64,000 bases of DNA from Bacteroidales bacterium (GCA_014860625.1 JACZJJ010000119.1:363-64362), one strand, 5' to 3'. Shown: positions 1,316-46,673, numbered from the stretch's first letter. Notes: generated by a model from the sequence alone, not told the origin. Program-made: numbers and translations.

Positions 1316-1340
1316 ATTCGTCATTCGTCATTCGTCATTC
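1316..1340. repeat. heptamer tandem repeat ATTCGTC x3.5
   Basis: Read directly. It contains the RAYT stop codon (1335-1337), between convergent gene ends. Confidence 0.9.
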
Positions 1341-1898
1341 TTCTAAAAGGTACATCTTCAACCCTTTCTCTTCTACCGGTTCGGTCAGGATCTGTGAAAG
1401 CACCTCCCTGTTCCCAAAGCGCCGGAGGATCTCCTCCTTTGGGATCAGCGTTTGCCACGTTGTAACAGTCGCATGAAATGAGGAGTAACGGTACCTTGAA
1501 CAATCTTCCACCACCCCATGTCGCCGGGCATTTTGGTTGATGTACCGGATCACCTCCCTCAAAATCGTTTCACGGCGAATCTCAATGCGCTTGAGTTTGA
1601 ATTTAAATAACTGGCCGTCACCCCCATTCTTTGTATGGTACCCTTTGGTATAAGCGTTAAAGAGCAACGCAAAGGGCGTATAGGGATTGCCCTCCAGATC
1701 CTCCTTCATGCGAACGAGAAAATGGACATGATCGTCGAGGATGCAGTATGCCCAGGTCTCGGCAAAAGGGGTAACATGTGTTTTGTAGAGTCTGATGAAG
1801 AACTGAATGTCTTCTTCTTCGGGAAAAAGAGGGTTCCCGTTTTTTGCCCGGTTGTAAATGTGATAAAATTTACCCGGTTCCAGGATTGCAGTTTTCAT
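1335..1898 (-). CDS. REP-associated tyrosine transposase-like protein (RAYT, IS200/IS605 Y1 HUH fold)
   Basis: FYHIYNRAKNG N-terminus, HUH motif in DDHVHFLV, catalytic-Tyr region VIRYINQNARRHG, and 187 aa is a typical size. No IS ends or flanking hairpins seen. Confidence 0.7.
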   Translation of the reverse strand: MKTAILEPGKFYHIYNRAKNGNPLFPEEEDIQFFIRLYKTHVTPFAETWAYCILDDHVHFLVRMKEDLEGNPYTPFALLFNAYTKGYHTKNGGDGQLFKFKLKRIEIRRETILREVIRYINQNARRHGVVEDCSRYRYSSFHATVTTWQTLIPKEEILRRFGNREVLSQILTEPVEEKGLKMYLLEE

Positions 1899-2009: not shown

Positions 2010-4991
2010 TCAGTGCTTTGGCTTAAATACGACCCCGTAACTTTTTTTTCCGTCGAGGGCGATTTTGCAGAAAGTTTCGAACCTGACGTTCCTGATATGG
2101 TCATTTTCCCAGAAAGCAGGCTGGCTGTCCAGGAAACCGACATCATACGATCCTTCACCAATGTGTGAATTGATGGTGAAGTATCCAACCCGGAAAGAGG
2201 TAAGGTTCTGAAAGAAATGAGTACCCTGGCTTGGATCAATCCGGTAGTTTTCCAGGCTCGACTCCACAATCAACCGGGCAGCAGATATCTGCGGCCAGCG
2301 GATCGGGATGCCCAGCCATGGGTCGCTGGAGCCCCAACGGCCCGGTCCGATCAGAATGTAGTTCTTATTCTCCTCCAGGAAACGGTCATTGACTTTCTCC
2401 AGCTGAGCGGCGAACTCCAGGCTTTTGGAGGCATCAAACGCCTCTGGTTTGATATAAACAATATCAGAAATATCGTTGATGATTCCATTGCCAAGTGCTG
2501 CATTTGAAACCAGGATCGTCTCCTCGGCGGAGATTGTTCCGGGATCAAGGTGAATGGTTTCATCGCGACCTGTAATAGGCCGGATCTGAAGTATGCTGAA
2601 TAACCTGGGCTCCCCTTTCGGCACATCAAGATTCACGGCAAATTCAATCTCTACCGGCTTGTCCATCTCCTTCTGCCCGATCTCCAGAATCTCCTGCAGG
2701 ATCTGTGCCAGGGGGAATGTGCCGTGATTCAAGATGTTTGAAAAGGTGATCAGCCGTTTTCCTGCAGACAACATGCCATCTTTGAGTGAATGGGCGTTGT
2801 AATCGTATGTGGAAGCTACCAGTTTCAGCACAGGATCACTTTCGGCATCCTTGACTTTAAGTTTCAGCAGGTTGATCGTCTCATCGCAGTCGGCATGAAA
2901 ACTGTCGGGGTTCAGATCCAGGGCATAAAAACTCTTCTGTGTTTCGGTAAGTGCCAGTTCAGGAGTGGACAGCTGAAGGATCTTTTTCGGGTAGCGCGGA
3001 GAGAACCGGATCCCGTTCCCGCCATCCACAATGTACTTGCCGAGTCCAAAAGCAATATTTGCGATGCCATCCCCGGGTTCTTCCGGAGCCATGGGATAAA
3101 AGTTGATGGATCGGGCAACTCCCGAGATCGTTGGGTAAAATCGGTTGCCATACTGCTTCCCGGTAACCTCTTGCAGCACTATTGCCATCTTCTCCTCGTC
3201 AATCATGTTCAGTGTGGCAGCCATGTAGGCTTTGGAGTCGTGGAAAAAGGCGGAGGCATAAACACTCTTGATTGCTTCACTCAGCTTCTCTATCATTAAC
3301 CGGTCGTTGAACCGGATGTTTGGGATCATGTAGGTAGAGTAAATCCCGGCAAATGGTTGATAATGTGAATCTTCAAGCAAGGAAGAGGACCTGATTGCCA
3401 CCGGGTTGCGGATGCATGTGATGAACGTATAGAGATCTTCATGGATCCGGAAGGGAAGCCTGGAAGCCACAAAATGGTCAAGAATCTCATTGTCGCTGTG
3501 ATTCGAAAGGGCAACTTCATACAGGTTGTTCTCCTCCATGAATTCATCGAAGACATCCGTACCGATAACCACCGTGCGGGGGATCGAAATCGTGACGCTG
3601 TTGTATTTGTCGGTAAGCCTGTTTCGTTTGATCAGCGAATCAAGAAAAGCAAGTCCCCTGGCTTTGCCGCCAATTGAACCCTCTCCGATCCGGCCAAAAT
3701 GTAAGAATTCATCGTAGCGGTCGCGATCGAAATCGGCAATCACACCTCTTGCCTTGTTGATGCGAAATGCCGAAATAGAGTCATAGATGTAGCGTTTGGC
3801 TTCATCCATATCATAAAACTCCGTTACGGAAATTTCAGAGAACATATCAGCAATAGGGAACAGAGCTCTTGCATTCAGCCACTTAGAAAACCTGTTGCGC
3901 TCCATGTGATACATCAGCGAATCGTCGGGGATCTCAAAAATCCGCTCCTGCATGGTGCGAAGATCAGCAACCCGACATATTTCGCGGCTGTTCTTCGGGT
4001 CCATGAAAACAAAATCTCCGAACGAGAAATGTTCATTGATGTAATTCCTCAACTCCATGGAGAGAGTTTTGGATACCTTGTTCACAAAACCAACTCTCAT
4101 CTGGTATGCTACATCTTTGTATTCCTCGTCTGACGACTGAAACAGGACTGGCATATATTCATCCTCTGTCCGGATCTTTTTCACAAATTTGATTCCGGCA
4201 GTTTTATCAGTCTCTCCCTGTCGTTTGAAACTGATGTCGGTGATGACCCCAAGCAGGTTGTTTTTGTATTTTTCCCAAAGGTCAATCGCTTCTTCATAAT
4301 TCGTAGCAAGCAGTATTTTGGTTCGACCGCGCATCCTGAGCATCTTTTGGTGCTCGTTCAGCCCTTCCGTCATGAACCCTTTTGACTGCTTGAAGATTAT
4401 CTTGTAGATGTTGGGCAGGTAGCTCGAATAGAATCGGATGGAATCTTCCACCAGCAATATGGCCTGTACGCCCTGCTTCACATCCTGATCGACATTCATC
4501 TTATCTTCGATCAGTTTGATAATTGCCAGCATGATATCTGCATTCCCCAACCAGGTGAACATATAATCGATGGCACTCAAATCCTTCTGACTGAGGCGCA
4601 GGCTGGATTCCCGTGAAAACGGCGTAAGTGCAACGATTGGAATTTTCGGATGCTGTTTCTTTATCCGAAGGGCAAGATCAAATGTGTCTGATTTCTCAAT
4701 GCTGAGCATTGAAATGATCAGTTCAACATGTTTGTCCTCCAGCACGGCGAAGGCCTCTTCTTCGGAAGTCACCTTGATAAACTGGGGGGGGTATCGAAGG
4801 TTCAGGGAGACATATTCCATAAAGATCTGCTCATCGATACGGCCATCCTCCTCCAGCATAAAGGCATCATATGTACTCGAGATCAGCAGGATCTGGTAAA
4901 TTCGCTTTTTCATCATCAGATTAAACTGAGTGTCAGCGAAATAATACTTCTTATGATCCAGCATTGATCGTGTTTTGGCCTTCTCTCCCAT
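2010..4991 (-). CDS. receiver-domain / PPDK_N (PEP/pyruvate-binding ATP-grasp) protein, no swivel-His domain; paralogue of 11845..15738
   Basis: Degenerate REC-like region (ILLISSTYDAFMLEEDG) followed by a canonical REC (AILLVEDS...LLGVITDISF...PVLFQSS). PPDK_N signatures GGKARGLAFL and VAIRSSSLLEDSHYQPFAGIYSTY. No GG-TSHAA-type phosphohistidine motif seen. Conserved C-terminal block ILIGPGRWGSSDPWLGIPIRWPQIS...GTHFFQN. Confidence 0.65.
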   Translation of the reverse strand: MGEKAKTRSMLDHKKYYFADTQFNLMMKKRIYQILLISSTYDAFMLEEDGRIDEQIFMEYVSLNLRYPPQFIKVTSEEEAFAVLEDKHVELIISMLSIEKSDTFDLALRIKKQHPKIPIVALTPFSRESSLRLSQKDLSAIDYMFTWLGNADIMLAIIKLIEDKMNVDQDVKQGVQAILLVEDSIRFYSSYLPNIYKIIFKQSKGFMTEGLNEHQKMLRMRGRTKILLATNYEEAIDLWEKYKNNLLGVITDISFKRQGETDKTAGIKFVKKIRTEDEYMPVLFQSSDEEYKDVAYQMRVGFVNKVSKTLSMELRNYINEHFSFGDFVFMDPKNSREICRVADLRTMQERIFEIPDDSLMYHMERNRFSKWLNARALFPIADMFSEISVTEFYDMDEAKRYIYDSISAFRINKARGVIADFDRDRYDEFLHFGRIGEGSIGGKARGLAFLDSLIKRNRLTDKYNSVTISIPRTVVIGTDVFDEFMEENNLYEVALSNHSDNEILDHFVASRLPFRIHEDLYTFITCIRNPVAIRSSSLLEDSHYQPFAGIYSTYMIPNIRFNDRLMIEKLSEAIKSVYASAFFHDSKAYMAATLNMIDEEKMAIVLQEVTGKQYGNRFYPTISGVARSINFYPMAPEEPGDGIANIAFGLGKYIVDGGNGIRFSPRYPKKILQLSTPELALTETQKSFYALDLNPDSFHADCDETINLLKLKVKDAESDPVLKLVASTYDYNAHSLKDGMLSAGKRLITFSNILNHGTFPLAQILQEILEIGQKEMDKPVEIEFAVNLDVPKGEPRLFSILQIRPITGRDETIHLDPGTISAEETILVSNAALGNGIINDISDIVYIKPEAFDASKSLEFAAQLEKVNDRFLEENKNYILIGPGRWGSSDPWLGIPIRWPQISAARLIVESSLENYRIDPSQGTHFFQNLTSFRVGYFTINSHIGEGSYDVGFLDSQPAFWENDHIRNVRFETFCKIALDGKKSYGVVFKPKH

Positions 4992-5053
4992 GATGAAACT
5001 TTAGCAAATCGTTATCCTGCGGATTCAAAGATAAGGAAGATTTGACAGGTATC

Positions 5054-5084
5054 CTGCCAACTGCCAACTAGCAACTGCCAACTG
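5054..5084. repeat. heptamer tandem repeat CTGCCAA x4.4 (one unit CTAGCAA)
   Basis: Read directly. It fills the spacer between the diiron-protein stop (5089) and the start of 2010..4991 (4991). Confidence 0.95.
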
Positions 5085-5088
5085 AAGA

Positions 5089-5544
5089 TTAGTTCTCCCT
5101 AAGGATATAATCGTCATACTCAATCTCGAACCGCATCTTGTGCTTCGATTCCTCCATTGCGAGGTGGCGGAACATCTCCTGCATCTCCGGTTGCTGAGCC
5201 CGGTCGGCCAGGGCCGTATAGAGCTTGAAAGCGGCTTTCTCCTTCTTCATGGCAAGAATCAGCGCCTTTTCGTACGACATGTCGGGTGTTGGTTTTACAT
5301 CCACCAGATAATCTGAAAGTTTCATGTCGACAATCGGGATGGTCCCAAAGACGGTAGAGCCATTCACCTTCACCTCCATCAATTTTGCCTTGTGCATCAT
5401 CTCCTCTTCCGCAAACTCGTGGAAGATTTTTTGAATCTGCTCGTTTTTCGACAGTTCAGCCAGCTTCAGGTAAAAATCCACTGCTGCCTGTTCCTCCCCG
5501 ATCGCAAAATCGAGAACGTCGTTTATGTTTTCAAATTCGATCAT
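5089..5544 (-). CDS. ferritin-like diiron protein (rubrerythrin-type four-helix bundle, no rubredoxin domain)
   Basis: Two E...ExxH pairs: GEEQAAVDFY / EEEMMHKAK and KKEKAAFKLY / EESKHKMRF. 151 aa. Confidence 0.65.
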   Translation of the reverse strand: MIEFENINDVLDFAIGEEQAAVDFYLKLAELSKNEQIQKIFHEFAEEEMMHKAKLMEVKVNGSTVFGTIPIVDMKLSDYLVDVKPTPDMSYEKALILAMKKEKAAFKLYTALADRAQQPEMQEMFRHLAMEESKHKMRFEIEYDDYILREN

Positions 5545-5586
5545 ATTTGTGATTGTTGTTGTTGTTTAATTATCAATTTAAACGAG

Positions 5587-5606
5587 AGCCGCAATGAATT
5601 GCGGCT
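5587..5606 (-). other. short intercistronic hairpin (agccgcaa-tgaa-ttgcggct)
   Basis: 8-bp inverted repeat between the fusion-gene stop (5615) and the diiron-gene start (5544). No clear T-run follows. Confidence 0.5.
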
Positions 5607-5609
5607 GTA

Positions 5610-5637
5610 CATCGTCATTCGTCCCTCATCATTCGTT
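5610..5637. repeat. degenerate heptamer repeat, ATTCGTC family (CATCGTC ATTCGTC CCTCATC ATTCGTT)
   Basis: Read directly. It spans the stop codon (5615-5617) and encodes the C-terminal RMMRDE tail of the 1237-aa fusion protein. Same family as 1316..1340. Confidence 0.7.
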
Positions 5638-8600
5638 CTTCAAATTCCTCCTCAAATCGCTTCACCAGGTAGTCGCATCCATAGTCAAAGTACCGGTTGG
5701 GATTGTCGTTGGCGCTGTAAGCCAGTGTGAGTTTCTCCGCCGGCATCTCCTCCTCCGTTTGAGGCAAGAGCTGGACGATCTCAGAGAATACATCCTCCCT
5801 GCTCTCTACTCCATTCAATCCAAATTGTTTCAGAATATGGATGAGTTGCCCAATGGAATCCATCTCCGGACGGGAAGGGAGTACCTTGTCAAACTCCAGA
5901 ATGACCTTCTGTGTATTGGAAAAGGTTCCTCCAATTTCTGCAGGGAATGAAGCCGGCAGAATCAGATCAGCCATCCTGGCCGTATCCGTCATGAAATAAT
6001 CCTGAACCACCTTGAACGGGATCTGCTCAATCAACATGCGGAACGACCCGGTTGTATCGCATCCCACAGGATCTTCACCAAAGATAAAGAGGTTCTTAAT
6101 CTTTCCCTGCGTGAGTTTTGTTTTAAGGCATGCTGAATCAGGTCCGGGGATTGAATCCACATTCCAGGCCTCCATGAGGTGTTTCAGGTAGGTTTCGTCA
6201 GTCAAACTCCTGCCCCCAACACCATACTTCCGGTTTATGCCCATGTCGAACAGTCCCTGTGCGTTATTCTTCTCTTTCAACACGATCAGTCCGTTGGCGG
6301 TTTTCCCAAGCTTTCCGGTGATCATAGCCATGTTCATCAAGGAGATGGCTCCATTCCCCGAAACCTCCTTCTCGGAATAGAGGATGATCGCGTTGAGTTC
6401 ATTGTTATACCCTTCCGCGAAGTTTTTTACCTCCTCTTCAGTTACACCGGCTCTGGCCAGAAGGGCGGGATAATCCTCCTTCGACATCTGCTCTTTGTAC
6501 TCGGTGAGCCCATCCACACGATCACGGAGGAAGAGTGCATTTTCCATCTTAGCTGTCAGCAGGAAATGGTTTACCGCTTTGATGAAATAGTAGTAGGACT
6601 TTACCTTGATGACCTGGTCCACTTTATGGTCCATCGCATTCTCCTCTTTGGTTGTGACAAGAACCACAGGAACATGCTTTTTCATCCGGGCGTTGCTTAC
6701 CATAAATCCGGCAACGGCATTGTCCCTGTTGATCTCGGATCCTACCAGATAAATTCGGGAGGCCTGTCCGATTTCTTCGAACGACGTGTTCATCGCTTCA
6801 TCCATACGGTAACCCTGCCACCTGCTTAGGTAGTGGAAGCTTCCGATGTTCCCGGTTTTGGCGCCAGCGCGGGCCAGCTTTTGAACCAGATACATCTCCT
6901 CATTGGTAAGCCGTGCCCCGGCAAAAAAAGCGCTGTCATCAGGATTCACTGCTCTGATTTGATCGAAGATCATCTGGAATGCCTCTTCAAAAGTGATCTT
7001 TTCAAATTTGCCATTGACGCGCTTCATCGGAGAGGTGATCCGGCTTCTATCGTTCAGGTAGGAGTAGCCAAACCGGGGGAAGCGGCAGATGTTGCCATCT
7101 TCGTTCACCTGTCCGGGGGCTCCGCTGACATTCATTACAAATCCGTTGAGGTGGTTCAGCGTCAGTGAACAGCCAATCGAACAGTAGTTACAAATGGTTT
7201 CGGCAGGAGTGGTGCGCACCGGACCTGGTTTAAAGAGCACATTCTCACTGATTGCTCCGGTCGGACAGGTAGAGATGCACATCCCGCAAGACTCGCAGTA
7301 AGTATCTTGCAATGAATCTCCCAGACTCGGAGCGACAAACGTCTCAAAGCCACGGTTGACGAGCCCCAGCGCATTGGCACCAACCACTTCGCGGCAGATA
7401 CGAACACAACGGGAGCATAAAATGCACTTGTTGTTGTCAATCTCGATATAGGGATGGCGGAAGTCGACCTGGTACTCCTTGTATGCTCCGGCAAATCCTT
7501 TCTGGTCGGCATTGTAATCGGTTGAATATTGCTGAAGGTCGCAATCGAAGAAGGCGTTGCACCCACATTCGAGGCAACGCTGGCTTTCATGAAGTGCGAC
7601 CTCTTCCCCGGCATACCCCAATTCCACTTCGGTGAAGTTCATCCGCTGATCGGTGTCCAGTACCGGCATCTCTTCCCGAAGCTGATTTTCAAATATTCCC
7701 GCATACTCTTCCCTGAGCTGCTTTTTGAAATTCTCCCGCTTGCTGGTAAAGGGTTTGTTGACAGGCATGATCTCCTGTCCCCTCAGAAACTGGTTGGCGC
7801 TGTGAGCAGCCACCTGTGCCTGGGCGATCGCTTCAATGATGGTAGCAGGACCGGTCACCCCGTCGCCAGCTGCAAACACCGATGGAATCCCTGTCTGGAG
7901 GGTATGCCTGTCGGCATCGATATCACCCCATTTGTTGATTTTCAACTCACCGGCAGAGGTGTTTGTATTGATGTCGTCAATAAAGTTCACATCGGTTTTT
8001 TGTCCGATAGCAGCCAGGATATAGTCTACCTTGATGTTGAACTCCGATCCCTCTACCGGCACCGGACGGCGGCGTCCCGAAGCATCGGGCTCGCCCAGTT
8101 CCATCTTGATGCAGGTGACTGTCTCCACATCCCCTTTCTCATTCTTATTGATCTTCTGCGGCAGCGTGAGGAACAGGTACTCTACCCCTTCGAGTTTCGA
8201 TTCATGGATCTCGATCGGGTTGGCAGGCATCTCTTTTTCGGTACGGCGGTATATGACATAGACCTTATCGGCATGGCATCTGATGGAAGTCCGACAGCAG
8301 TCCATGGCGGTATTTCCTCCACCAACCACTGCAATCGTCTTTCCGCTGAAGTCGTAATGCTGCTCCGTTACTTCCATGTTTTTCAGGAAGTCGATACCCG
8401 AGTATACATTCCCTGCATCGTCGCCTTCACAACCCACTCCGGTCCCGATCTGGGATCCGATGGTGAGAACCGTCGCATCGTACTTGTCAGCAATCGTTTT
8501 GTAACTCAGATTCTCTCCAAGCTTCTGGTTATAGAAAATCTGTACACCGAGGTCTGTGATGTTTTTCACCTCCTGATCCAGGATGTCGTTTGGCAGCCTG

Positions 8601-9328
8601 TATTCGGGGATGCCATAGCGAAGCCAGCCACCCGGATGGGGAGCTGCTTCATAAATGTCCACCTGATGTCCCTGAACCTGCATGAAGTATGCTACGGACA
8701 ATCCGCCGGGGCCTGCACCAATAACCGCTACTTTTTTCCCTGTTGAGGGCTGGATATCGGGGACAAATTTATCCGGAGATGCCAGATCCCAGTCTGCTGC
8801 GAACCGTTTCAGGTAATCGATTCCCACGGCAGCTCCTTCATCCAACAGGTTCCTGCGGCACTCCTTTTCACACGGGCGAACGCAAACGCGTCCGCAGATT
8901 GCGGGCAAAGGGTTGGTCTCTTTGATCAGGGCGATGGCATCGGAGTATTTTCCTTTTTCGATCAGGGAGATGTATCCCTGCACGTCGACGCCCGCCGGAC
9001 AAGTCTGCTTGCATGGTCCGAGACAGTCGGCATAGTGATTGCTCAGCATCAGCTCCAGCGCCATCTTGCGCGATTTCCGGATGGATTCATTGTATGTGGT
9101 GATCTTCATCCCTTCCGTAATCCGTGTTGAACAGGAGGGCTGATGGCCCCTCATTCCCTCTACCTCCACCACGCAAACGAAGCATGAGGAGTAGGGTTCG
9201 AGGCGATCATCGTTGCACAGGGTAGGGATCTCAATCCCGTTTCGGTTGGCAAGCTGGAGGATGGTTTCGCCAGGGGTTCCCTTAACGATCTTTCCGTCTA
9301 ATATGATATTTAATGATTGTTCAGACAT
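5615..9328 (-). CDS. fused oxidoreductase subunit: [2Fe-2S] ferredoxin + GltD-like NAD(P)H/FAD domain + NuoG-type FeS clusters + truncated molybdopterin-oxidoreductase-like domain
   Basis: N-terminal Fer2 (CNDDRLEPYSSCFVCVVEV). GltD-type motifs CGRVCVRPCEKEC, VAVIGAGPGGL, VVGGGNTAMDC and AAGDGVTGPATIIEAIAQ. NuoG-like CILCSRCVRIC and CESCGMCISTCP. MopB Fe4S4 CNYCSIGC...ICRFPRFG. The position of the Fdh Cys/Sec-His pair reads GSFHYLSR. Confidence 0.7.
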   Translation of the reverse strand: MSEQSLNIILDGKIVKGTPGETILQLANRNGIEIPTLCNDDRLEPYSSCFVCVVEVEGMRGHQPSCSTRITEGMKITTYNESIRKSRKMALELMLSNHYADCLGPCKQTCPAGVDVQGYISLIEKGKYSDAIALIKETNPLPAICGRVCVRPCEKECRRNLLDEGAAVGIDYLKRFAADWDLASPDKFVPDIQPSTGKKVAVIGAGPGGLSVAYFMQVQGHQVDIYEAAPHPGGWLRYGIPEYRLPNDILDQEVKNITDLGVQIFYNQKLGENLSYKTIADKYDATVLTIGSQIGTGVGCEGDDAGNVYSGIDFLKNMEVTEQHYDFSGKTIAVVGGGNTAMDCCRTSIRCHADKVYVIYRRTEKEMPANPIEIHESKLEGVEYLFLTLPQKINKNEKGDVETVTCIKMELGEPDASGRRRPVPVEGSEFNIKVDYILAAIGQKTDVNFIDDINTNTSAGELKINKWGDIDADRHTLQTGIPSVFAAGDGVTGPATIIEAIAQAQVAAHSANQFLRGQEIMPVNKPFTSKRENFKKQLREEYAGIFENQLREEMPVLDTDQRMNFTEVELGYAGEEVALHESQRCLECGCNAFFDCDLQQYSTDYNADQKGFAGAYKEYQVDFRHPYIEIDNNKCILCSRCVRICREVVGANALGLVNRGFETFVAPSLGDSLQDTYCESCGMCISTCPTGAISENVLFKPGPVRTTPAETICNYCSIGCSLTLNHLNGFVMNVSGAPGQVNEDGNICRFPRFGYSYLNDRSRITSPMKRVNGKFEKITFEEAFQMIFDQIRAVNPDDSAFFAGARLTNEEMYLVQKLARAGAKTGNIGSFHYLSRWQGYRMDEAMNTSFEEIGQASRIYLVGSEINRDNAVAGFMVSNARMKKHVPVVLVTTKEENAMDHKVDQVIKVKSYYYFIKAVNHFLLTAKMENALFLRDRVDGLTEYKEQMSKEDYPALLARAGVTEEEVKNFAEGYNNELNAIILYSEKEVSGNGAISLMNMAMITGKLGKTANGLIVLKEKNNAQGLFDMGINRKYGVGGRSLTDETYLKHLMEAWNVDSIPGPDSACLKTKLTQGKIKNLFIFGEDPVGCDTTGSFRMLIEQIPFKVVQDYFMTDTARMADLILPASFPAEIGGTFSNTQKVILEFDKVLPSRPEMDSIGQLIHILKQFGLNGVESREDVFSEIVQLLPQTEEEMPAEKLTLAYSANDNPNRYFDYGCDYLVKRFEEEFEERMMRDE

Positions 9329-9364
9329 TACAATGATTTTTTTGCTTTTTTGTGGTTTCTTTTT

Positions 9365-9424
9365 GCCCCTAACTCCCCTAAAGGGGACTTACTCCCTCCC
9401 CTTTAGGGGAGTGTTGGGGAGGGG
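9365..9424. repeat. REP-like GC-rich palindromic element
   Basis: ctcccctaaagggga / tcccctttaggggag inverted arms around a 9-nt loop, flanked by gcccct and ggggagggg. It ends directly at the TAA of the NuoF-like gene (9425). A 19-nt core (9374-9392) recurs reverse-complemented at 58928-58946. Confidence 0.75.
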
Positions 9425-11200
9425 TTATGTCAGGATAATTGAGTCAAACTTGCATTTCGAATAACACACGCCGCACTGGGTGCAAAGCTCCTGGCTGATG
9501 AGGTGTGGCTGTTTCCGTTCACCCGTAATGGCATTCGCCGGGCAGTTTTTCAGACAAACCATGCAGCCAGTGCATTTCTCCTGGTCAACGGTGTAAGTCA
9601 GCAGCGGCCGGCAAACCTTCGCGGGGCATTTCTGATGCACGATATGCGCTTCATACTCATCCCTGAAGTACTTGATGGTGGTGAGAACGGGGTTTGGCGC
9701 TGTCTGGCCAAGTCCGCACAGAGAGTTATCCTTGATCTCATAGGCAAGCTCCTCCAGCTTTTCGATATCGCCTTCACGTCCTTCCCTGTTGGTGATGCGT
9801 TCGAGGATTTCCAGCATCCTGACGGTTCCAACCCGGCAGAAGGTGCATTTCCCGCACGACTCCTTGCAGGTAAAGTCGAGGAAGAATTTGGCCACATCCA
9901 CCATGCAGGTGCTTTCGTCCATCACAACCATCCCGCCCGATCCCATGATCGCGCCGGTGGCATTCACCGAGTCATAATCCACAATTGTTTCGGAAAGGTA
10001 TTGAGGAATGCATCCGCCCGATGGCCCTCCCAGCTGAACAGCCTTGAACTTCTTGTCGTTCTTGATCCCGCCACCGAGTTTCATGATCACGTCGTTGATG
10101 GTGATGCCCATGGGCACCTCCACCAATCCCGAATTTCTGACTTTCCCGGCGAGGGCGAATACTTTTGTTCCCTTACTCTTTTCAGTGCCGTATTTGGAAA
10201 AGGCTTCGGCTCCATGGAGTACAATCCACGGGATGTTGTTTAAGGTCTCAACGTTGTTGATGTTGGTGGGTTTGCGCCACAATCCCGATTCAGCCGGAAA
10301 TGGCGGCCTTTTTCGCGGCATCCCGCGTTCCCCTTCAACGGAGGCGATGAGTGCGGTCTCTTCTCCGCAAACAAAAGCGCCGGCCCCTTCCTTGATATAG
10401 ATATCAAAGTTGAAATCTTTGTTTCCCAGAATCTCTTTCCCCAGATATCCTCTTTGACGGGCCTGATCCAGTGCGATGTTGAGCCGTTTGATCGCAAGCG
10501 GATATTCTGCCCTGCAGTAGATTACGCCGCCTGTAGCTCCTATGGAATAGGCTGCGATGATCATCCCTTCGAGAACCGAGTGTGGGTCACCTTCGAGAAT
10601 GCTGCGATCCATGAATGCTCCGGGGTCTCCCTCGTCGGCATTGCAGATCACATATTTCTCGTCGGATTGGTTCGCTTTGGCAAATTTCCACTTCAAGCCG
10701 GTGGGGAATCCACCGCCTCCGCGACCGCGAATCCCCGATTTGAGGATCGTATCAATCACCTGGTCGGCAGGGATCTTCTCTTCAATGATCCGTTTGATGG
10801 CTTTGTACCCGTCTCGGGCCTCGTATTCTTCAATCGATTCGGGATCCATGTAACCACAGTTCCTCAATACGATCTTTACCTGTGAATTCATGAAATCGTT
10901 CTCCGGAGCATCAAAGAGGTCGGTGTAAACGATAAAGTCCCTTATCGGATCGTGCTGGTTGACATGCTTCTCAATGACTTCGATTGCGCGCTCAGCATCA
11001 ACATCACCATAGATATAGGTTCCTGAATCGTCCACGATTTCAACGAGAGGCTCGCGGTAGCACATCCCGATGCAACTGGTTTTCTTCAGATCAAAATCGA
11101 GGTTGTCGCTCTCTTTGAGGGCTTTGATCTTGTCGTAGGTTTTATTAGCGCCGGCAGCAATTCCGCAGCTTCCAAGTCCGACGGTGACAGTAGTACTCAT
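9425..11200 (-). CDS. NuoF/HydB-like NADH-binding FMN iron-sulfur flavoprotein with N-terminal thioredoxin-like and C-terminal 2x[4Fe-4S] extensions
   Basis: GRGGGGFPTGLKWKF, CGKCTFCRVGT, and C-terminal CTGCMVCLKNCP / CTQCGVCYSKC. The ATG at 11200 (MSTTVTVGLGSCG) is preferred, because the listed TTG start at 11290 lies inside heptamer repeats. Confidence 0.8.
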   Translation of the reverse strand: MSTTVTVGLGSCGIAAGANKTYDKIKALKESDNLDFDLKKTSCIGMCYREPLVEIVDDSGTYIYGDVDAERAIEVIEKHVNQHDPIRDFIVYTDLFDAPENDFMNSQVKIVLRNCGYMDPESIEEYEARDGYKAIKRIIEEKIPADQVIDTILKSGIRGRGGGGFPTGLKWKFAKANQSDEKYVICNADEGDPGAFMDRSILEGDPHSVLEGMIIAAYSIGATGGVIYCRAEYPLAIKRLNIALDQARQRGYLGKEILGNKDFNFDIYIKEGAGAFVCGEETALIASVEGERGMPRKRPPFPAESGLWRKPTNINNVETLNNIPWIVLHGAEAFSKYGTEKSKGTKVFALAGKVRNSGLVEVPMGITINDVIMKLGGGIKNDKKFKAVQLGGPSGGCIPQYLSETIVDYDSVNATGAIMGSGGMVVMDESTCMVDVAKFFLDFTCKESCGKCTFCRVGTVRMLEILERITNREGREGDIEKLEELAYEIKDNSLCGLGQTAPNPVLTTIKYFRDEYEAHIVHQKCPAKVCRPLLTYTVDQEKCTGCMVCLKNCPANAITGERKQPHLISQELCTQCGVCYSKCKFDSIILT

Positions 11201-11241
11201 ATAGGGTTTCTTTAAGTTTTGTTTCTTCTTGAATAAGTCTT

Positions 11242-11265
11242 CAGTTGGCAGTTGGCAGTTGGCAG
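11242..11265. repeat. heptamer tandem repeat CAGTTGG x3.4 (reverse complement of the CTGCCAA family)
   Basis: Read directly, in the spacer between the NuoE-like and NuoF-like genes. Confidence 0.95.
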
Positions 11266-11277
11266 ATATTGCAATTT

Positions 11278-11305
11278 CTGCAGACTGCAAACTGCAGACT
11301 GCCCA
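11278..11305. repeat. heptamer tandem repeat CTGCAGA CTGCAAA CTGCAGA CTGCCCA
   Basis: Read directly. It abuts the NuoE-like TAG stop (11306-11308) and forms an imperfect inverted repeat (about 18/24) with 11242..11265. Confidence 0.95.
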
Positions 11306-11824
11306 CTAATTTTTCTCTGCCAGCCTGATGTTTTTAATCACTTTCACTGCAGCATTTCCGGTCAGTTTGCCATAAGTCTGGTCACCAATCATCATCACCG
11401 GGGCCAGCGAACAGCATCCCAGGCAGGCTACTGACTCGAGGGTAAAGAGGCGGTCTTCCGTCGTCTCCCCGTCTTTGACCTTCAATGCCTCTTCAATGGC
11501 TTCTGTGATCTCGTTGGCATTTTGCACATGGCAGGCGGTACCGTGGCATACCTTCACAATGTGCTTGCCAACAGGCTTCAGGCGGAACTGGGCGTAGAAA
11601 GTTGCTACCCCGAACATATCGCTAAGCGGGAGCCCGGTTCCGGCCGAGAGATGCTCGAAAGCCGCACGGGGGATAAAACCGTAGAGCTCCTGTGCTCCCT
11701 GAAGGAGGGGGATTACATTCCCCTTTTTGCCTTTGTACTTTTTGATCAATGGATCGAGTAGGGTGAGGTCGATCGCATCTGCTTCGGTAACGGCCTCTTT
11801 TTTGTACACTCTTGCAATTCGCAT
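11306..11824 (-). CDS. NuoE/HydC-like [2Fe-2S] thioredoxin-like ferredoxin subunit
   Basis: VCHGTACHV...ESVACLGCCSLAPVMMI cysteine pattern, 172 aa, directly upstream of the NuoF-like gene. Confidence 0.8.
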   Translation of the reverse strand: MRIARVYKKEAVTEADAIDLTLLDPLIKKYKGKKGNVIPLLQGAQELYGFIPRAAFEHLSAGTGLPLSDMFGVATFYAQFRLKPVGKHIVKVCHGTACHVQNANEITEAIEEALKVKDGETTEDRLFTLESVACLGCCSLAPVMMIGDQTYGKLTGNAAVKVIKNIRLAEKN

Positions 11825-11844
11825 AAAAATCTGGTTTTAAATCT

Positions 11845-14800
11845 TTATTTGGTTGGTTTCTTTGTCCCTTTGTCAAAGGTAATCACTGAGATTCTCTTTT
11901 TCCCGTCCATCCGAACGGTGAGGGGCTTCTCAAAGTGAGCGATGGAAAAATAGGTTGTTTTCTTAAGTTTGGGTTGTCTCTTCAGCACATCATACCGAAT
12001 GAAACTCCTGGAGAGTTCGGGCTGTACGCAGAAATAACCGACATTCATCGAGGTGACGTTGTGAAAAAAGTGCGATCCGGAGGAGGCATCCAGGGGAAAT
12101 CCTTCCAAACTCGTCTCCACAATCACTTTGGCATTGGATATCTGCGGCCAGGAGATTGGGATGCCGATCCATTTGTCGCGGGTGCCCCATCTGCCGGGAC
12201 CAATCAGGATATACTTCCTGTTCTCTTTCACCATCTCTGCGTTGATCCTTCCCATCTCTTCAGCCATTTCAAAGGTCTGTGATTTATCGAACGTATCGGG
12301 ATCAACAAACACCACATCATCGATGTCGCTGATCAGTCCGTTCCCCATCTCCTTTTCCGAATACAGCAAGATCTCCTCCTCGGGAATGGTCTTCATGTCG
12401 ATCACAAAATCTGTCGCATTCCCAATCAATGGTTTGATCTGAAGGAGATAAAAGGAGGCTTTGTTTTCCTTGTCCTTGTTCAGGTCAATCGCAAATTCAA
12501 TCTCAACAGGCGACCCCATTGCCTCCTGAACCACATCCAGCACCACATCTATGGTTTTGGCGAGGGGGATATAATTATATTTAAGGATATCGGCAAAGTT
12601 AATTACCCTGGGACCCGGATGGCTCAATCCCGGTATGATCCGGTTGTTTTCGGGGCTGAAGACAGAAGCGAGATGATTGAGGGTCCCTTGCCTTTCAGCA
12701 TCGTCGACATCCAGTTTCCTGAGGCCGGCATCCTCGCCCTCAAGCAGGTTTACATCTTTCTTGGCAAGGTCAACGGCATAGAAATGAACCTGGCTGCCTT
12801 TCAGCTGGTCTTCCGCCGAATTGATCTCCAGGTTGGGATAATGCGGAGAGAACCTGAACGCTTTCTCACCCTCTACAACAAACCGTCCCAGTCCCAGAGC
12901 GATCACGGCGAATCCCTCTTCGGGCTTCATATGGGCAAAAGGATAGTAGTTATACGACTGGGCCACACCACTGATATGCGGATAAAAAACATCTTCGTGC
13001 TGACTTCCAACTACCTCCTGAATTACAACGGCCATTTTTTCCTGTTCGATCCTGTAGTTAACCGCTTCAATATAGGCTTTGGCTGTCGGAGAATAAACCG
13101 ATGCGTAGACAAGCTTGATGGCATCTTTCAGTTGCTCCAGCCTGACTTTCGGATCCGGATGGTCGTTGGGGATGAGGTATGTCTCAAAGATGCCGGCGAA
13201 AGGCTGGTTCAGGGAGTCTTCGAACAGGCCGGAAGAGCGGATCGCCAAAGGCTTGTTCAAATGTTTGATCAGCACTTTCAGTTTCCGGATCAATGTTTCC
13301 GAAAGCCTTCCTTCGACAAACAGCCGTCGGATTTGCTGGTAATCAGTCTCCTGCACTGATCTTTCCCGAAGATGGTTTCGGTCAAGGAAATATTCAAATT
13401 CATCCGTTCCAACGATGGAGGTGGCAGGAGTGAGGATGTTGATGTTGGGGATGTGCCGTGAAAAGTCGTAGTTGTATATCAGGGTGTTGACAAATGCCAG
13501 TCCCCGGCCCTTCCCTCCCAGGGCTCCTTCTGTCAGGCTGACAATATTGGTGGCATCGGTGATGGAGGATTCTTCAAACGGGATCACCTTTCCTCTGCTC
13601 TGCTCGTTCCTGAAGTGGGAGATGACCGATATGAGGTATTCCCGCAGACTGGCGGCATCATTAAAGTCCGTTACCTTCGCCGGATTGAGAATCTTGGCAG
13701 CCTGGATCTCCCCCCGAGCCGTAAGCCAGAGGGAAAAATGGTCTTTCCTGGCATGGTAGAGAAGCGATTCTTCCGGAATGGTTTTCAACCTGTCTTCGAA
13801 TTCTTTGAGAGATCTCGCCAGTCCGATCTGTTTTCCATCATTGTCGCGGTAGATAAAATTGCCAAATCCAAGGTAATGTGTGATAAAGCTCCTGAAATCG
13901 ACGAGCAGCGTCTCTGAATTCTTATTGATGAAAGAGGTTTTAAGTTCATACGCTGTTACCGAGTTTGTATCGTCGGACGACTGCAGAACGATCGGCAGTT
14001 CCGGTGTCTCTTTCCGGGTTTGGTTGACAAGTGAGAATCCCGCAGTTTCATTGAGTTTACCATCCTTCTTAAACTTCACATCGGAGATCAGGCAGAGGAT
14101 AAACTCCTTGTATTTATTGAAGATATACATCGCCTCCTCGTAGGTGGAGGCGAGGAGGATTTTTGGACGGGCTTTCAGCCTGAGAATCCGGTAGAGTTCA
14201 TCGGTAGTAACATCTTCAATGATGTGTTTGGTTTGCTCGAGTACAATATTATAAAGCATCGGCAGGTAGAGCGAATAATATTGCGGCGAGTCTTCCACAA
14301 GCAGGATCACCCGCACCATACCCAGCCTCGTATCATTCTCGAGGTTGATCTTGTCCTCAAGGTAGTTGATCATGGCAAAAAAGATCCGCGTATCCCCATT
14401 CCATACAAAAACACGGTCAATCCAGCTCAGGCGATCGGATTCACTTTCAATAAGAGCCAGGTCGGTATTGCTGTTTAACAGCATAAAGACCGGGATATAC
14501 TGGAATTCAGCTTTAATGGTTTTGCTAAGCTCAATGGGGAATTGCTTGTCGACCCCCATCATAATTATCACCAGGTCGTAATGCTTGGAATGCAGTTGTT
14601 CCATCACCTCCTCAATCGAGGAGACACCGGTGATACGTGGCATCGTACTGAGACTCAACTGATAGAACTGGCCAAGCACATGCTCTGAGAATCGTCCCTC
14701 TTTTTCTATGCTGTAAGCGTCGTAAAGATTGGCTACAAGCAGAATCTCTCTCACCTTGAAAGGCATCAGGTCATGGTAAATGTCGCGGTTGTTGTTGGTA

Positions 14801-15738
14801 CGGTTCAGGAACGACTGAAGCAGACGACGGCTGGAGTTTTCATCGAAACTGTTTTCTCCCTGTTTATCCTTTTCTTCGGGCCTGGTGGTGCTCTTTTTAA
14901 GGATTGCCTTTCCCTTGATGGAGTTGAGATACCCGGTAATCAGATTGGAAAGGTTGATGATCAGGTCTCGCTCCTCTTCCAGGAAAGGCCCTTCAAATGC
15001 CTGCGGGAATGCCTTAACGTAGCAGATCTCAATGGAGCCGGTCTGGTTATCGATCGTCTCAAACACCTGCAATTGTTTCCATTGGGTCTCCCGGAAATTG
15101 GGACTCTGGACCTCAATATTTCCGTGTTTGATCCTGCATACGGTAAATTCGGGATACTGCCACGCCCTGGGAATTATCATGCAGATCTGGTGCATGGCTT
15201 CATCGGGTGGGGCTCCTGTACGAAGAATGCTGGTGGTTTGGTTTATTGCCGATAACTCTTTCAGCCGTTCCGTCGTGACGTAACGACCCTCTCTTCCCTT
15301 GATGGCGTTGAGGTATCCCTCGATCAAGCTGGAAAGTGTGTTGATCAGGTTCCTCTCCTCTTTCAGGAAGGGTCCTTCATACGCTTTTGGATACTCTTTC
15401 AGGTAGAAGACTTCCAGTGAACCTAAGAGATTGTCGATCGTTTGGAAAACCTGCTCCTGTTTCCATGCTGTTTCCCGGAAGTTGTTGGTGGTAAACTCCA
15501 TCTCATCGAACCGGATCCGAACCACAGTATGCTTGGGATATTGCCACGCTCGTGGCAGGACCTGGCAGATTCTGGTAAGGGTATCAGGTATGGACTTGTT
15601 TTCCTTAAGGATTGCCGTAGTATGATTGATCGCTGTGAGCTCTTTCAGCCGTTCACGATTATCGGACAGCAGTTTCTCAATGTCATTCGACTTGGCTGGA
15701 ATCTTTCCGGCGCGCTTTCTATCGTCCTTACCTGGCAT
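11845..15738 (-). CDS. 2x GAF-like + receiver domains + PPDK_N (ATP-grasp) protein; paralogue of 2010..4991
   Basis: ATG at 15738 (MPGKDDRK) is preferred over the listed TTG at 15837. There are two ~120-aa internal repeats (LKELTAINHTT... / LKELSAINQTT...). REC motifs are ILLVEDSPQYYS...LCLISDVKF...PIVLQSS. PPDK_N motifs are GGKGRGLAFV and LAIRSSGLFEDSLNQPFAGIFETY. The C-terminal block is ILIGPGRWGTRDKWIGIPISWPQIS...GSHFFHN. Confidence 0.65.
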   Translation of the reverse strand: MPGKDDRKRAGKIPAKSNDIEKLLSDNRERLKELTAINHTTAILKENKSIPDTLTRICQVLPRAWQYPKHTVVRIRFDEMEFTTNNFRETAWKQEQVFQTIDNLLGSLEVFYLKEYPKAYEGPFLKEERNLINTLSSLIEGYLNAIKGREGRYVTTERLKELSAINQTTSILRTGAPPDEAMHQICMIIPRAWQYPEFTVCRIKHGNIEVQSPNFRETQWKQLQVFETIDNQTGSIEICYVKAFPQAFEGPFLEEERDLIINLSNLITGYLNSIKGKAILKKSTTRPEEKDKQGENSFDENSSRRLLQSFLNRTNNNRDIYHDLMPFKVREILLVANLYDAYSIEKEGRFSEHVLGQFYQLSLSTMPRITGVSSIEEVMEQLHSKHYDLVIIMMGVDKQFPIELSKTIKAEFQYIPVFMLLNSNTDLALIESESDRLSWIDRVFVWNGDTRIFFAMINYLEDKINLENDTRLGMVRVILLVEDSPQYYSLYLPMLYNIVLEQTKHIIEDVTTDELYRILRLKARPKILLASTYEEAMYIFNKYKEFILCLISDVKFKKDGKLNETAGFSLVNQTRKETPELPIVLQSSDDTNSVTAYELKTSFINKNSETLLVDFRSFITHYLGFGNFIYRDNDGKQIGLARSLKEFEDRLKTIPEESLLYHARKDHFSLWLTARGEIQAAKILNPAKVTDFNDAASLREYLISVISHFRNEQSRGKVIPFEESSITDATNIVSLTEGALGGKGRGLAFVNTLIYNYDFSRHIPNINILTPATSIVGTDEFEYFLDRNHLRERSVQETDYQQIRRLFVEGRLSETLIRKLKVLIKHLNKPLAIRSSGLFEDSLNQPFAGIFETYLIPNDHPDPKVRLEQLKDAIKLVYASVYSPTAKAYIEAVNYRIEQEKMAVVIQEVVGSQHEDVFYPHISGVAQSYNYYPFAHMKPEEGFAVIALGLGRFVVEGEKAFRFSPHYPNLEINSAEDQLKGSQVHFYAVDLAKKDVNLLEGEDAGLRKLDVDDAERQGTLNHLASVFSPENNRIIPGLSHPGPRVINFADILKYNYIPLAKTIDVVLDVVQEAMGSPVEIEFAIDLNKDKENKASFYLLQIKPLIGNATDFVIDMKTIPEEEILLYSEKEMGNGLISDIDDVVFVDPDTFDKSQTFEMAEEMGRINAEMVKENRKYILIGPGRWGTRDKWIGIPISWPQISNAKVIVETSLEGFPLDASSGSHFFHNVTSMNVGYFCVQPELSRSFIRYDVLKRQPKLKKTTYFSIAHFEKPLTVRMDGKKRISVITFDKGTKKPTK

Positions 15739-15954
15739 GCTAAAATCGGGGATGGTCGTGCCAAAATTAACACAACTTTCGGAACTGAAAAAATTAAAAA
15801 GCAGCAGATGAGCATTGTAAGAATTATACCGAAACAAGCATCAGTGAAACACTTAGTTCGCATCCGAAATTCTCGTAAGTGTCTGAAAATAAGTAAATAA
15901 TATTGAAAAAACAAGAGGAATTCCTTGTTTCGAATAAAAACTTTTACTTAATAT

Positions 15955-15970
15955 TGTGAAAAATTTCACA
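15955..15970. promoter_or_regulatory. perfect 16-bp palindrome TGTGAAAAATTTCACA (TGTGA-N6-TCACA, Crp/Fnr-type half-sites)
   Basis: Read directly. Its centre lies ~40 nt upstream of the gdhA ATG, in the divergent region shared with the 11845..15738 cluster. Confidence 0.45.
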
Positions 15971-15983
15971 TAGAACACTATAA

Positions 15984-17357
<1,374 letters not shown>

Positions 17358-17388
17358 ACTCTCACATACTCATTTAAATATGACAGGT

Positions 17389-17425
17389 GGGCTGTTCTGA
17401 ATTTCAGGACAGCCCTCTGTTTTTC
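17389..17425 (+). terminator. rho-independent terminator after gdhA
   Basis: gggctgttctga-att-tcaggacagccc (12-bp stem with one G-U/mismatch) followed by tctgttttt. Confidence 0.7.
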
Positions 17426-17456
17426 ATCCCATCCCAGAAATGCTTAGATTTGCCTC

Positions 17457-21961: not shown

Positions 21962-22000
21962 CTATCAGTCATCAATAACTAACCGGGACGAACCAAAGCC

Positions 22001-24789: not shown

Positions 24790-24792
24790 TTC

Positions 24793-24824
24793 GCTATTTC
24801 ACTATTTCACTATTTCGTTTCACC
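24793..24824. repeat. octamer tandem repeat (GCTATTTC ACTATTTC ACTATTTC GTTTCACC)
   Basis: Read directly. It occupies the whole gldF-gldG spacer and includes the gldF stop. Same family as 36024..36069 (reverse complement) and 39913..39944. Confidence 0.9.
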
Positions 24825-25627: not shown

Positions 25628-25651
25628 CTGCCAACTGCCAACTGCCAACTG
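25628..25651. repeat. heptamer tandem repeat CTGCCAA x3.4
   Basis: Read directly. It ends 4 nt before the stop codon at 25656. Confidence 0.95.
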
Positions 25652-46484: not shown

Positions 46485-46506
46485 CCCAACCTCTCCTATT
46501 AACACT

Positions 46507-46583: not shown

Positions 46584-46673
46584 CCCGACCGGCGCGAACG
46601 TCATCCTTACCGGCACATTCTTTCTGTGAAGTCAAACGGTGATAGTTTTGCCCGAACAACAAAAAACCGCACC

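Follow-up and report, generated by a model that had tools for sequence, protein, structure and literature searches.

What do two giant proteins that join signal-receiver domains to an ATP-grasp domain do on either side of a transhydrogenase, and on which enzyme do they act? The question is raised by a six-gene cluster at positions 2010-15837 of a 64,000-nucleotide (nt) stretch of DNA from Bacteroidales bacterium (GCA_014860625.1, JACZJJ010000119.1:363-64362; the whole stretch is called the window below). In this cluster, the genes of a NuoE/NuoF/NuoG-like oxidoreductase of the Nfn type and of a small diiron protein are bracketed by two genes for receiver-PPDK_N proteins, here called the large and the small paralogue, and gdhA, encoding an NADP-specific glutamate dehydrogenase (GDH), lies divergently beside them. 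Many anaerobes, among them the Bacteroidota that dominate guts, digesters and sediments, assimilate ammonium mainly through GDH. To our knowledge, the control of GDH flux and of NADPH supply in such anaerobes is poorly understood. Comparison of the locus with its relatives suggested that the paralogue pair is the primary unit and forms an ATP-dependent module, gated by its receiver and linked to reductive glutamate synthesis around NADP-GDH, with GdhA, or another enzyme of the same 2-oxoglutarate/glutamate/NADPH node, as its likeliest target. We assign this reading a probability of roughly 0.54.

The two flanking proteins are paralogues with 38% identity over 966 amino acids (aa). Both matched PPDK_N (PF01326; 2.5e-41 for the small and 4.3e-40 for the large paralogue) and the receiver family PF00072, the Response_reg match being weak in the large paralogue. 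They share one domain order, namely a pseudo-receiver, a true receiver, a linker of ~120 residues, the PPDK_N ATP-grasp domain and a C-terminal domain of ~180 residues, and the large paralogue carries two N-terminal sensor repeats ahead of this shared architecture. The first receiver-like domain lacks the acidic pair and the acceptor Asp (LLISS / ISM) and was therefore classed as a pseudo-receiver. In the second receiver, E182/D183, D252, S286 and K305 are invariant among close relatives, and in an alignment of 83 diverse family members with 32-50% identity they were kept in 80 (E182), 72 (D183), 74 (D252), 78 (S286) and 80 (K305) sequences. Moreover, the nucleotide-site residues G441, G442, K443, R534, S535, S536, E540, D541 and Q802 were invariant in all 83 members, and E783 was kept in 82. 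The invariant nucleotide site, the phosphorylatable receiver and the sensor repeats point to a signal-gated, ATP-dependent, dikinase-like enzyme acting at this node.

Members of the family are currently annotated as phosphoenolpyruvate (PEP) synthase, PEP/pyruvate-binding protein or hypothetical protein. The flanking proteins are not PEP synthases, because neither the swivel phosphohistidine domain (PF00391) nor the PEP/pyruvate TIM barrel (PF02896) was found in them by Pfam and both scored far under all PEP-synthase cut-offs (TIGR01418, 27.4 and 39.5 bits vs. 739.75). This result agreed with the reading in an earlier note on the window, made from the DNA sequence, which would have failed had they been ordinary PEP synthases. 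When its sequence was searched against PDB, the small paralogue gave no matches, and the profile built from the 83 members reached 5hv6 (2.5e-12), with only the ATP-grasp part of dikinases matched. Furthermore, Foldseek analysis of the AlphaFold model of the whole small paralogue (predicted local distance difference test [pLDDT] score of 70.5) returned rifampin phosphotransferase as the best match (5hv1, 1.3e-9), followed by the PleD tandem receivers (2e-7). The C-terminal domain, in which R885, E910 and G923 were invariant in 83/83 members and H925 was kept in 82/83, was modelled alone with a pLDDT of 86.5 and a predicted template modelling score of 0.86. Its strand/helix order and an S-x-G-[ST]-H motif had suggested a diverged swivel phosphohistidine domain; this assignment was unsupported, since the isolated C-terminus matched nothing in Pfam at E ≤ 1 (and so no PF00391), the family profile was limited to the ATP-grasp part, and Foldseek gave no significant match.

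The distribution of the family was evaluated with a HMMER scan of 1.84 billion representative sequences. After clustering at 50% identity, 5102 family clusters were obtained at E ≤ 1e-3 and 1213 at E ≤ 1e-30, most of them ~990 aa long with an end-to-end match, and the source names pointed to Spirochaetales, Myxococcota, Bdellovibrionales, Bacteroidales and Cloacimonetes. In a sample of 10 distant members (32-50% identity), which is small and was picked partly by the extent of available sequence, GDH was the immediate neighbour, on the same strand as the adjoining PPDK_N gene, at 8 loci, and the two paralogues stood together at 5. The observed orders were PPDK>PPDK>GDH (L165 and L170), PPDK>GDH (L168 and L174), GDH>PPDK (L169, L172 and L175, with a 4-nt gene overlap in L169) and, in L173, PPDK<GDH< followed divergently by PPDK>. 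No Nfn genes were present at any of the 10 distant loci. The association conserved over long distances is that of the paralogue pair with GDH, and GDH, not Nfn, is the hallmark neighbour of the family. The occurrence of the family next to GDH genes in several phyla suggests a candidate control system for ammonium assimilation.

At the Cloacimonetes locus L165, hydA<nuoF<nuoE<rex< is followed divergently by PPDK>PPDK>GDH>histidine kinase>sigma-54 activator, which places a HydABC-type bifurcating hydrogenase and Rex divergently upstream of the PPDK-PPDK-GDH genes. At the metagenomic locus L168, another 2-oxoglutarate-node neighbour was seen, as the genes for the E1, E2 and E3 components of the 2-oxoglutarate dehydrogenase complex (15007-18928) lie a few kb from PPDK-GDH.

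Within Bacteroidales, species-representative genomes were scanned with the small paralogue, which yielded 80 loci (57-86% identity), all in Bacteroidota-type metagenome-assembled genomes (MAGs). The ORFs (open reading frames) of these loci were called, clustered and searched with the window proteins, and 78 loci were used for counting. The commonest arrangement was direct adjacency of the two paralogues with nothing between them (~24/78), and most of these adjacent pairs were directly preceded by both subunits of a 2-oxoacid:ferredoxin oxidoreductase (TIGR03710, 660 bits), with gdhA often adjoining. The oxidoreductase was found in the flanks of 16/78 loci, mostly directly upstream of the pair, gdhA was nearby in 12 and Nfn in only 11. 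When the count was confined to the 34 loci with both flanks of at least 8 kb, the large paralogue was present at 16, the oxidoreductase at 9, Nfn at 8 and gdhA at 5, and 20 had at least one of GDH, Nfn and the oxidoreductase. The order of the window (large paralogue, nfnC, nfnB, nfnA, with or without the diiron gene, small paralogue) recurred in L001, L007, L072 and the metagenomic L108, and the small paralogue directly followed nfnA or the diiron gene in L006, L027, L033, L093 and L110. The earlier note had made conservation of this neighbourhood a test of its reading; the bracketing does recur in some Bacteroidales, but Nfn is not the defining partner.

Other genes were also seen around these loci. 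In L003 and L004 (8272-9960 and 234-1922, respectively), where the small paralogue is 76% identical to that of the window and Nfn and the large paralogue are not in view, a gene for formimidoyltransferase-cyclodeaminase, another glutamate-linked enzyme, comes before it and a major facilitator superfamily transporter gene after it. In L001, AbiEii/AbiEi-type toxin-antitoxin genes (7883-9017) separate the diiron gene from the small paralogue, and AbiEii/AbiEi-type genes adjoin the 1557-aa family member in L173 (12820-14233).

The bracketed trio was compared with solved complexes. The nfnC product matched PF01257 (1.9e-49) and, in PDB, 9bov_C (1.9e-56) as well as 8oh5_A and 9n5u_C. The nfnB product carries PF01512, PF10589, SLBB and two Fer4 domains by Pfam, and matched 8oh5_B (5e-261), 9n5u_B and 9bov_B, all over the full length; its alignment with StnB and NfnB spans residues 4-591, and its additions to the NuoF-like BfuB core are the two Fer4 domains at residues 566-616 and a weak 2Fe-2S_thioredx match at 54-108. 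In the 1237-aa nfnA product, Fer2_4 (PF13510, residues 4-80), Fer4_20 (PF14691, 104-182) and Pyr_redox_2 (PF07992, 198-504) are followed by Fer4_Nqo3 (626-693), Molybdop_Fe4S4 and Molybdopterin (PF00384, 763-1153), so that a GltD/NfnB-like module for FAD and NADP(H) stands between the N-terminal [2Fe-2S] domain and the NuoG-like clusters; its top PDB matches were 9bov_A (1.6e-237), 8oh5_C (5e-220) and 9n5u_A (8e-186). These entries are the NfnABC of C. saccharolyticus (9bov), the StnABC of S. ovata (8oh5) and an archaeal NfnABC (9n5u). Because all three subunits matched the same three solved complexes over their full length, the trio was assigned as an electron-bifurcating/confurcating NfnABC (StnABC, Nfn-Bfu), in line with the Nfn-like, Bfu-family assignment of the earlier note. 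It is a known enzyme and no novelty is claimed for it: Nfn-Bfu has been characterised biochemically and structurally (PMC10482914, PMC11829005, PMC12018979 and PMC9304861), and its occurrence in Bacteroidetes has been reported (PMC9304861). The predicted reaction is reduced ferredoxin + NADH + 2 NADP+ <-> oxidised ferredoxin + NAD+ + 2 NADPH.

The position of Nfn relative to the pair and to gdhA was informative in two respects. In L005, the closest sister species, whose small paralogue is 86% identical to that of the window, the slot between the paralogues beside a divergent gdhA holds a classical two-subunit NfnAB (5jca_S, 2e-95; 4ylf_B, 4e-163). NfnAB and NfnABC are unrelated, non-homologous types that share only the GltD-like module, and the occupation of one slot by different architectures with the same reaction points to selection for the Nfn function there. 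In addition, among 34 NfnABC loci collected from metagenomes, five (L101, L109, L112, L113 and L116) have gdhA immediately ahead of nuoE-nuoF-nfnA in the same orientation, which strengthens the link between gdhA and NADPH supply that had been proposed from the window. Other orders seen in Bacteroidales were small>gdhA>nuoE>nuoF>nfnA>diiron in L101 and, in L109 and L113, the large paralogue divergent from gdhA>nuoE>nuoF>nfnA>diiron; in L053, nfnA<nuoF<nuoE<gdhA< is divergent from the large paralogue followed by the small one. No PPDK_N gene was in reach at 26 of the 34 NfnABC loci, so the transhydrogenase does not depend on the paralogue pair.

The 151-aa product of the diiron gene matched PF02915 (3.4e-15), has the diiron motifs E17/E18, E48-x-x-H51, E102 and E132-x-x-H135, and has the ferritin-like diiron-carboxylate proteins 2fzf and 1vjx as its nearest solved relatives; it contains neither a rubredoxin-like Fe(Cys)4 domain nor any Cys pair. 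Of the 34 NfnABC loci, 17 have this gene immediately after nfnA, which makes the protein a habitual companion of Bacteroidales NfnABC. By analogy, and in the spirit of Rub-Bfu, it may protect NfnABC from oxygen or peroxide. We regard this companion as a minor variant of a known system.

The two sensor repeats of the large paralogue, of ~130 aa each, were recognised by internal similarity and belong to an unnamed domain family. The earlier note had read this protein as GAF-GAF-REC-PPDK_N; REC and PPDK_N stood, and a second, receiver-like domain was added to each flanking protein, but the GAF assignment could not be confirmed, as the repeats matched no Pfam family at E ≤ 1 and the sole PDB match of their profile was a weak one to 33 residues of the Nlh2 GAF-domain protein (E 0.15). 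With the same profile, a homologue search yielded fragments of these proteins alone and revealed no further architecture. The repeats are, however, homologous to the N-terminus of the histidine kinase of L165 (hhalign probability 96.7%, E 3.4e-10), a HisKA/HATPase protein (12340-13467) encoded right after PPDK-PPDK-GDH and before the sigma-54 activator. Thus, the sensor domain travels with the system, as a fusion in some cases and as part of an adjacent kinase in others. A tblastn search of the window with the L165 kinase and sigma-54 activator gave no match; the search covered these kinase and NtrC types, and other kinase types were not searched for. The number of repeats varies, with about one in most adjacent pairs (~1150 aa), two in the window (1297 aa) and about four in the L173 protein (1557 aa); examples are found at 8001-12674 in L173 and 4427-6856 in L175.

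We propose that the paralogue pair would be the primary unit and would work with GdhA. Phosphorylation of Asp252 in the receiver would control when the ATP-grasp domain carries out a dikinase-like, ATP-dependent phosphoryl transfer; the large paralogue would take an extra signal through its fused sensor repeats, a role that the same domain could have on the adjacent histidine kinase in Cloacimonetes, and the C-terminal domain would serve as a phospho-carrier (through His925) or as a target-binding site. With GdhA, or another enzyme of the node, as its most likely target, the pair would act as a post-translational flux controller, in logic like GlnE or AceK. NfnABC, working in the confurcating direction, would carry electrons from ferredoxin to NADPH and from there into glutamate synthesis by GdhA. 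The transhydrogenase may have been recruited between the paralogues in this lineage, with NADPH supply co-expressed with the pair beside gdhA, and related lineages may have recruited classical NfnAB or the 2-oxoacid:ferredoxin oxidoreductase at the same place, the latter adding ferredoxin-dependent 2-oxoacid synthesis. In kind, the pair falls among response regulators whose output is enzymatic, here joined to known metabolic enzymes, and there is a real chance that it represents a new type of metabolic control. We advance only tentatively its furthest-reaching form, in which a dikinase-type ATP-grasp enzyme, gated by a two-component or directly sensed signal, would covalently modify GdhA, or a supplier of NADPH or 2-oxoglutarate, via the His of the C-terminal domain and so switch ammonium assimilation on and off across phyla.

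Several observations weigh against this interpretation. GDH was not found at two of the 10 distant loci (L166 and L171), which come from the small and partly selected sample described above, and 12 of the 34 well-flanked Bacteroidales loci had none of the large paralogue, the oxidoreductase, Nfn and gdhA within 8-10 kb. The phospho-carrier idea has one conserved His as its sole basis; the C-terminal domain model gave no significant Foldseek match in PDB (best E 0.02, TM 0.29), and the 83-member profile found no PDB sequence for this domain. As to co-transcription, highly stable hairpins are found in three spacers of the cluster, and upstream of the small paralogue there is a TAnnTTTG box. In addition, literature searches for PPDK_N with a receiver, or for pyruvate-binding protein with GDH and response regulator, found nothing relevant. 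Finally, the gene neighbourhood fits a GdhA regulator and an enzyme sharing a metabolite with GDH alike.

In the second of these possibilities, the PPDK_N proteins would be metabolic dikinases or ligases under receiver control, with a small molecule from the 2-oxoglutarate/glutamate node instead of a protein as their target, and would neighbour GDH because of a shared substrate or product. All characterised PPDK_N-domain enzymes (PEP synthase, pyruvate phosphate dikinase [PPDK], rifampin phosphotransferase and PigC/RedH) use small molecules, structure and profile comparisons put rifampin phosphotransferase and PEP synthase at the top, and the polar constellation R885, D890, E910, S921, H925 and N929 in the C-terminal domain is compatible with a small-molecule site. 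However, the swivel and PEP/pyruvate domains are missing, no pathway gap is known at the node, two receiver-type domains with sensor repeats are more typical of signalling, and the frequent pairing of paralogues would be left unexplained, so that we consider this explanation possible but doubtful. A specific regulation or covalent modification of the bracketed Nfn complex by the receiver-PPDK_N proteins, as the earlier note had suggested, also has some points in its favour: the bracketing recurs in L001, L007, L072 and L108, the small paralogue follows nfnA or the diiron gene in five more loci, and NfnAB in the same slot of L005 fits selection for Nfn function beside the pair. Nevertheless, Nfn is the least constant partner and hence the weaker option as a target. 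It occurs at few small-paralogue loci (11/78), most NfnABC loci (26/34) have no PPDK_N gene in reach, and in the distant phyla GDH is the constant neighbour (8/10 vs. 0/10 for Nfn); moreover, a target common to NfnAB and NfnABC would have to be the GltD-like module. Regulation of Nfn by the pair is therefore unlikely.

The paralogues could also form a signalling device without a local enzyme target, an unorthodox phosphorelay in which the ATP-grasp domain would place phosphate on the protein's own C-terminal His, its receiver Asp or both, with a transcriptional output through a separate regulator. The intact receiver signature and the PleD-like tandem receivers would suit such a phosphorelay, as would the histidine kinase and sigma-54 activator that follow the L165 cluster and the PAS-receiver protein that follows in L171. 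We think it quite improbable, as neither a DNA-binding domain nor a known output domain is present in the proteins, at most loci no regulator that could act as partner is seen, and the tight coupling to GDH, with gene overlaps of 4 nt (L169) and 8 nt (L171), looks like a partnership at the enzyme level. The least credible explanation is that no functional connection exists and that the arrangement is synteny inherited within a Bacteroidales clade. Many of the loci come from related MAGs and are not independent events, and a third of the well-flanked loci have no partner at all; against this, at least eight different gene orders unite the same partners, GDH adjacency persists in other phyla at 32-40% identity, and two non-homologous Nfn types occupy one slot. 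The reading of the pair as a receiver-gated module at the GDH node is the one that we prefer, and the earlier interpretation as a whole was partly supported.

The coordinates of the locus are given in Table 1. All six head-to-tail minus-strand ORFs described in the earlier note were present, and its five spacers of 20, 105, 96, 70 and 97 nt were reproduced only when ATG 11200 was taken as the start of the NuoF-like gene; this start gives a protein of 591 aa, like the orthologues, and the alternative start is TTG 11290. Its NuoE, NuoF, GltD-NuoG fusion, rubrerythrin-type, REC and PPDK_N calls were likewise recovered with Pfam and NCBIfam. For the large paralogue, ATG 15738 is the more likely start, because the identical database entry is 1297 aa long and orthologues have 1280-1300 aa, and because a TAnnTTTG box of the Bacteroidetes type (15762-15769) falls within the longer ORF, just upstream of 15738.

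Table 1. Features of the receiver-PPDK_N/NfnABC locus and of the adjoining gdhA, in window coordinates.
Feature	Coordinates	Strand	Description
Small paralogue	2010-4991	-	993 aa
Small paralogue, C-terminal domain	2013-2555	-	from alignment and domain model
Small paralogue, PPDK_N ATP-grasp	~2556-3686	-	from Pfam and alignment
Small paralogue, linker domain	~3687-4055	-	from alignment of both paralogue groups
Small paralogue, receiver with D252	~4056-4469	-	from alignment of both paralogue groups
Small paralogue, pseudo-receiver	~4542-4904	-	from alignment of both paralogue groups
Diiron gene	5089-5544	-	151-aa ferritin-like diiron-carboxylate protein, rubrerythrin-type
Spacer nfnA/diiron	5545-5614	-	8-bp hairpin then CUCGUUUAAAUU, no U tract; -14.7 kcal/mol, z -3.7
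nfnA / stnC	5615-9328	-	[2Fe-2S], GltD-like FAD/NADP(H), NuoG-like FeS, cofactor-less MopB-like (BfuA)
Spacer nfnB/nfnA	9329-9424	-	16-bp GC-rich hairpin, no U tract; -38.8 kcal/mol, z -4.5
nfnB / stnB	9425-11200 (ORF to TTG 11290)	-	NuoF-like FMN subunit, C-terminal 2x[4Fe-4S] (BfuB)
Spacer nfnC/nfnB	11201-11305	-	heptamer repeats giving a long hairpin, no U tract; -30.8 kcal/mol, z -4.0
nfnC / stnA	11306-11824	-	NuoE-like [2Fe-2S] subunit (BfuC)
Large paralogue ORF	11845-15837, favoured start 15738	-	1297 aa from ATG 15738
Large paralogue, sensor repeats	15295-15675 and 14884-15294	-	~130 aa each; internal similarity, aligned; unnamed domain family
Divergent intergenic region	15739-16001	.	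TAnnTTTG box 15762-15769 (large paralogue side), palindrome 15956-15971 (gdhA side)
gdhA	16002-17357	+	NADP-specific glutamate dehydrogenase, divergent from cluster

Co-transcription of the six genes is plausible from this layout, and internal processing or a second promoter within the cluster is possible. No canonical intrinsic terminator was found in any spacer between the cluster genes; the same scan for sigma-70 promoters and terminators gave counts close to the shuffled expectation, and Bacteroidetes promoters lie outside its model. The three spacer hairpins could be processing, stabilising or repetitive extragenic palindromic (REP)-like elements inside the putative operon, and for the one in the nfnA/diiron spacer a weak attenuator or a processing site is conceivable. 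The intergenic regions of the window are rich in tandem heptanucleotide repeats (CAGTTGG, CTGCAAA, TCTTCCT, ACGAAGG and others), with arrays for example at 5054-5084, 11242-11302, 25628-25651, 38755-38800, 40376-40485, 46506-46584 and 55145-55174 (TRF, period 7); two arrays fall in spacers of the cluster, and the motif CAGTTGGCAGTTGGCAG occurred 20 times window-wide with up to three mismatches vs. 0.10 expected. Directly downstream of the small paralogue, a 187-aa ORF (1335-1898, minus strand) gave a sub-threshold match to REP-associated tyrosine transposases (NF047646, 47 bits vs. a cut-off of 80), and L001, L006 and L072 have a homologue (cluster c44) in the same place or close to it.

The gdhA product was assigned with NF006929 (765 bits vs. 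a cut-off of 536). Upstream of the gene, ~47 nt from the start codon, lies a CRP/FNR-type perfect palindrome, TGTGA-N6-TCACA (TGTGAAAAATTTCACA). L086 (TGTGAACTGTTTCACA) and, with a single mismatch, L005 have the site equally far from gdhA, and it is present neither in L108 nor in more distant gdhA loci. A 1996 publication by Baggio and Morrison, known here by its title as cited in PMC4539542, reports a dependence of B. thetaiotaomicron GDH activity on trans-acting genes downstream of gdhA; it was rejected as evidence, because the neighbours of BT1970, malic enzyme BT1969 and catalase BT1971 (PMC8865466, PMC12596196), are not of the receiver-PPDK_N family. Beyond gdhA and an FkbM-type methyltransferase gene, the minus-strand region 18362-25551 contains envelope-related genes unrelated to the main finding, encoding a Wzy_C O-antigen-ligase-like protein, two GT4 glycosyltransferases, DUF4340 and ABC_transp_aux proteins and an ABC-2 permease; the last three genes (c41-c43) adjoin the small paralogue in L051, L054, L064 and L065.

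The locus and its relatives connect components that had so far stood apart, namely a structurally solved bifurcating transhydrogenase, NADP-GDH with 2-oxoacid:ferredoxin oxidoreductase, and ~1000-aa response regulators that are mis-annotated as "phosphoenolpyruvate synthase". If the family controls GDH, a new class of regulatory enzyme would be defined and thousands of annotations would be corrected. Even otherwise, the data would give Nfn-Bfu a physiological role in Bacteroidales, the feeding of NADPH to GdhA, and the function of the family is now directly testable whichever reading holds. As far as the literature was searched, the GDH linkage, the displacement between NfnABC and NfnAB in one slot and the C-terminal domain unmatched in PDB are undescribed.

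Each part of the locus has counterparts among known systems. The NfnABC/StnABC complexes of Caldicellulosiruptor saccharolyticus, Sporomusa ovata and Thermococcus sibiricus have the same subunits, domain order and length as in the window; the window locus differs in that the 151-aa diiron gene follows, two receiver-PPDK_N genes bracket the trio and gdhA adjoins, and no mention of such diiron, receiver-PPDK_N or gdhA neighbours was found in the Nfn-Bfu papers cited above. In the Rub-Bfu proposal, a rubrerythrin gene adjoins BfuBC (Schut et al. 2022, PMC9304861). The window resembles it in having a rubrerythrin-type diiron gene directly downstream of Bfu genes; whereas BfuA is missing in Rub-Bfu and rubrerythrin takes its place, the window has a complete NfnA and a diiron protein without a rubredoxin domain.

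For the paralogues themselves, the resemblance to GlnE (glutamine synthetase adenylyltransferase) and AceK (isocitrate dehydrogenase kinase/phosphatase), which are large ATP-using proteins at branch-point enzymes, is one of logic only; there is no sequence or fold relationship, and the comparison is one of analogy, not membership. With rifampin phosphotransferase and PEP synthase/PPDK they share a homologous ATP-grasp nucleotide domain with conserved GGK and RSS..ED motifs. In contrast to those dikinases, the window proteins have no swivel domain (PF00391) and no PEP/pyruvate or rifampin-binding domain, and instead carry two N-terminal receiver-type domains and a C-terminal domain unmatched in solved structures. 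PleD-type regulators likewise place a tandem of a true receiver and a pseudo-receiver before an enzymatic output; in the window proteins the order is reversed, with the pseudo-receiver first, and the output is an ATP-grasp domain instead of GGDEF.

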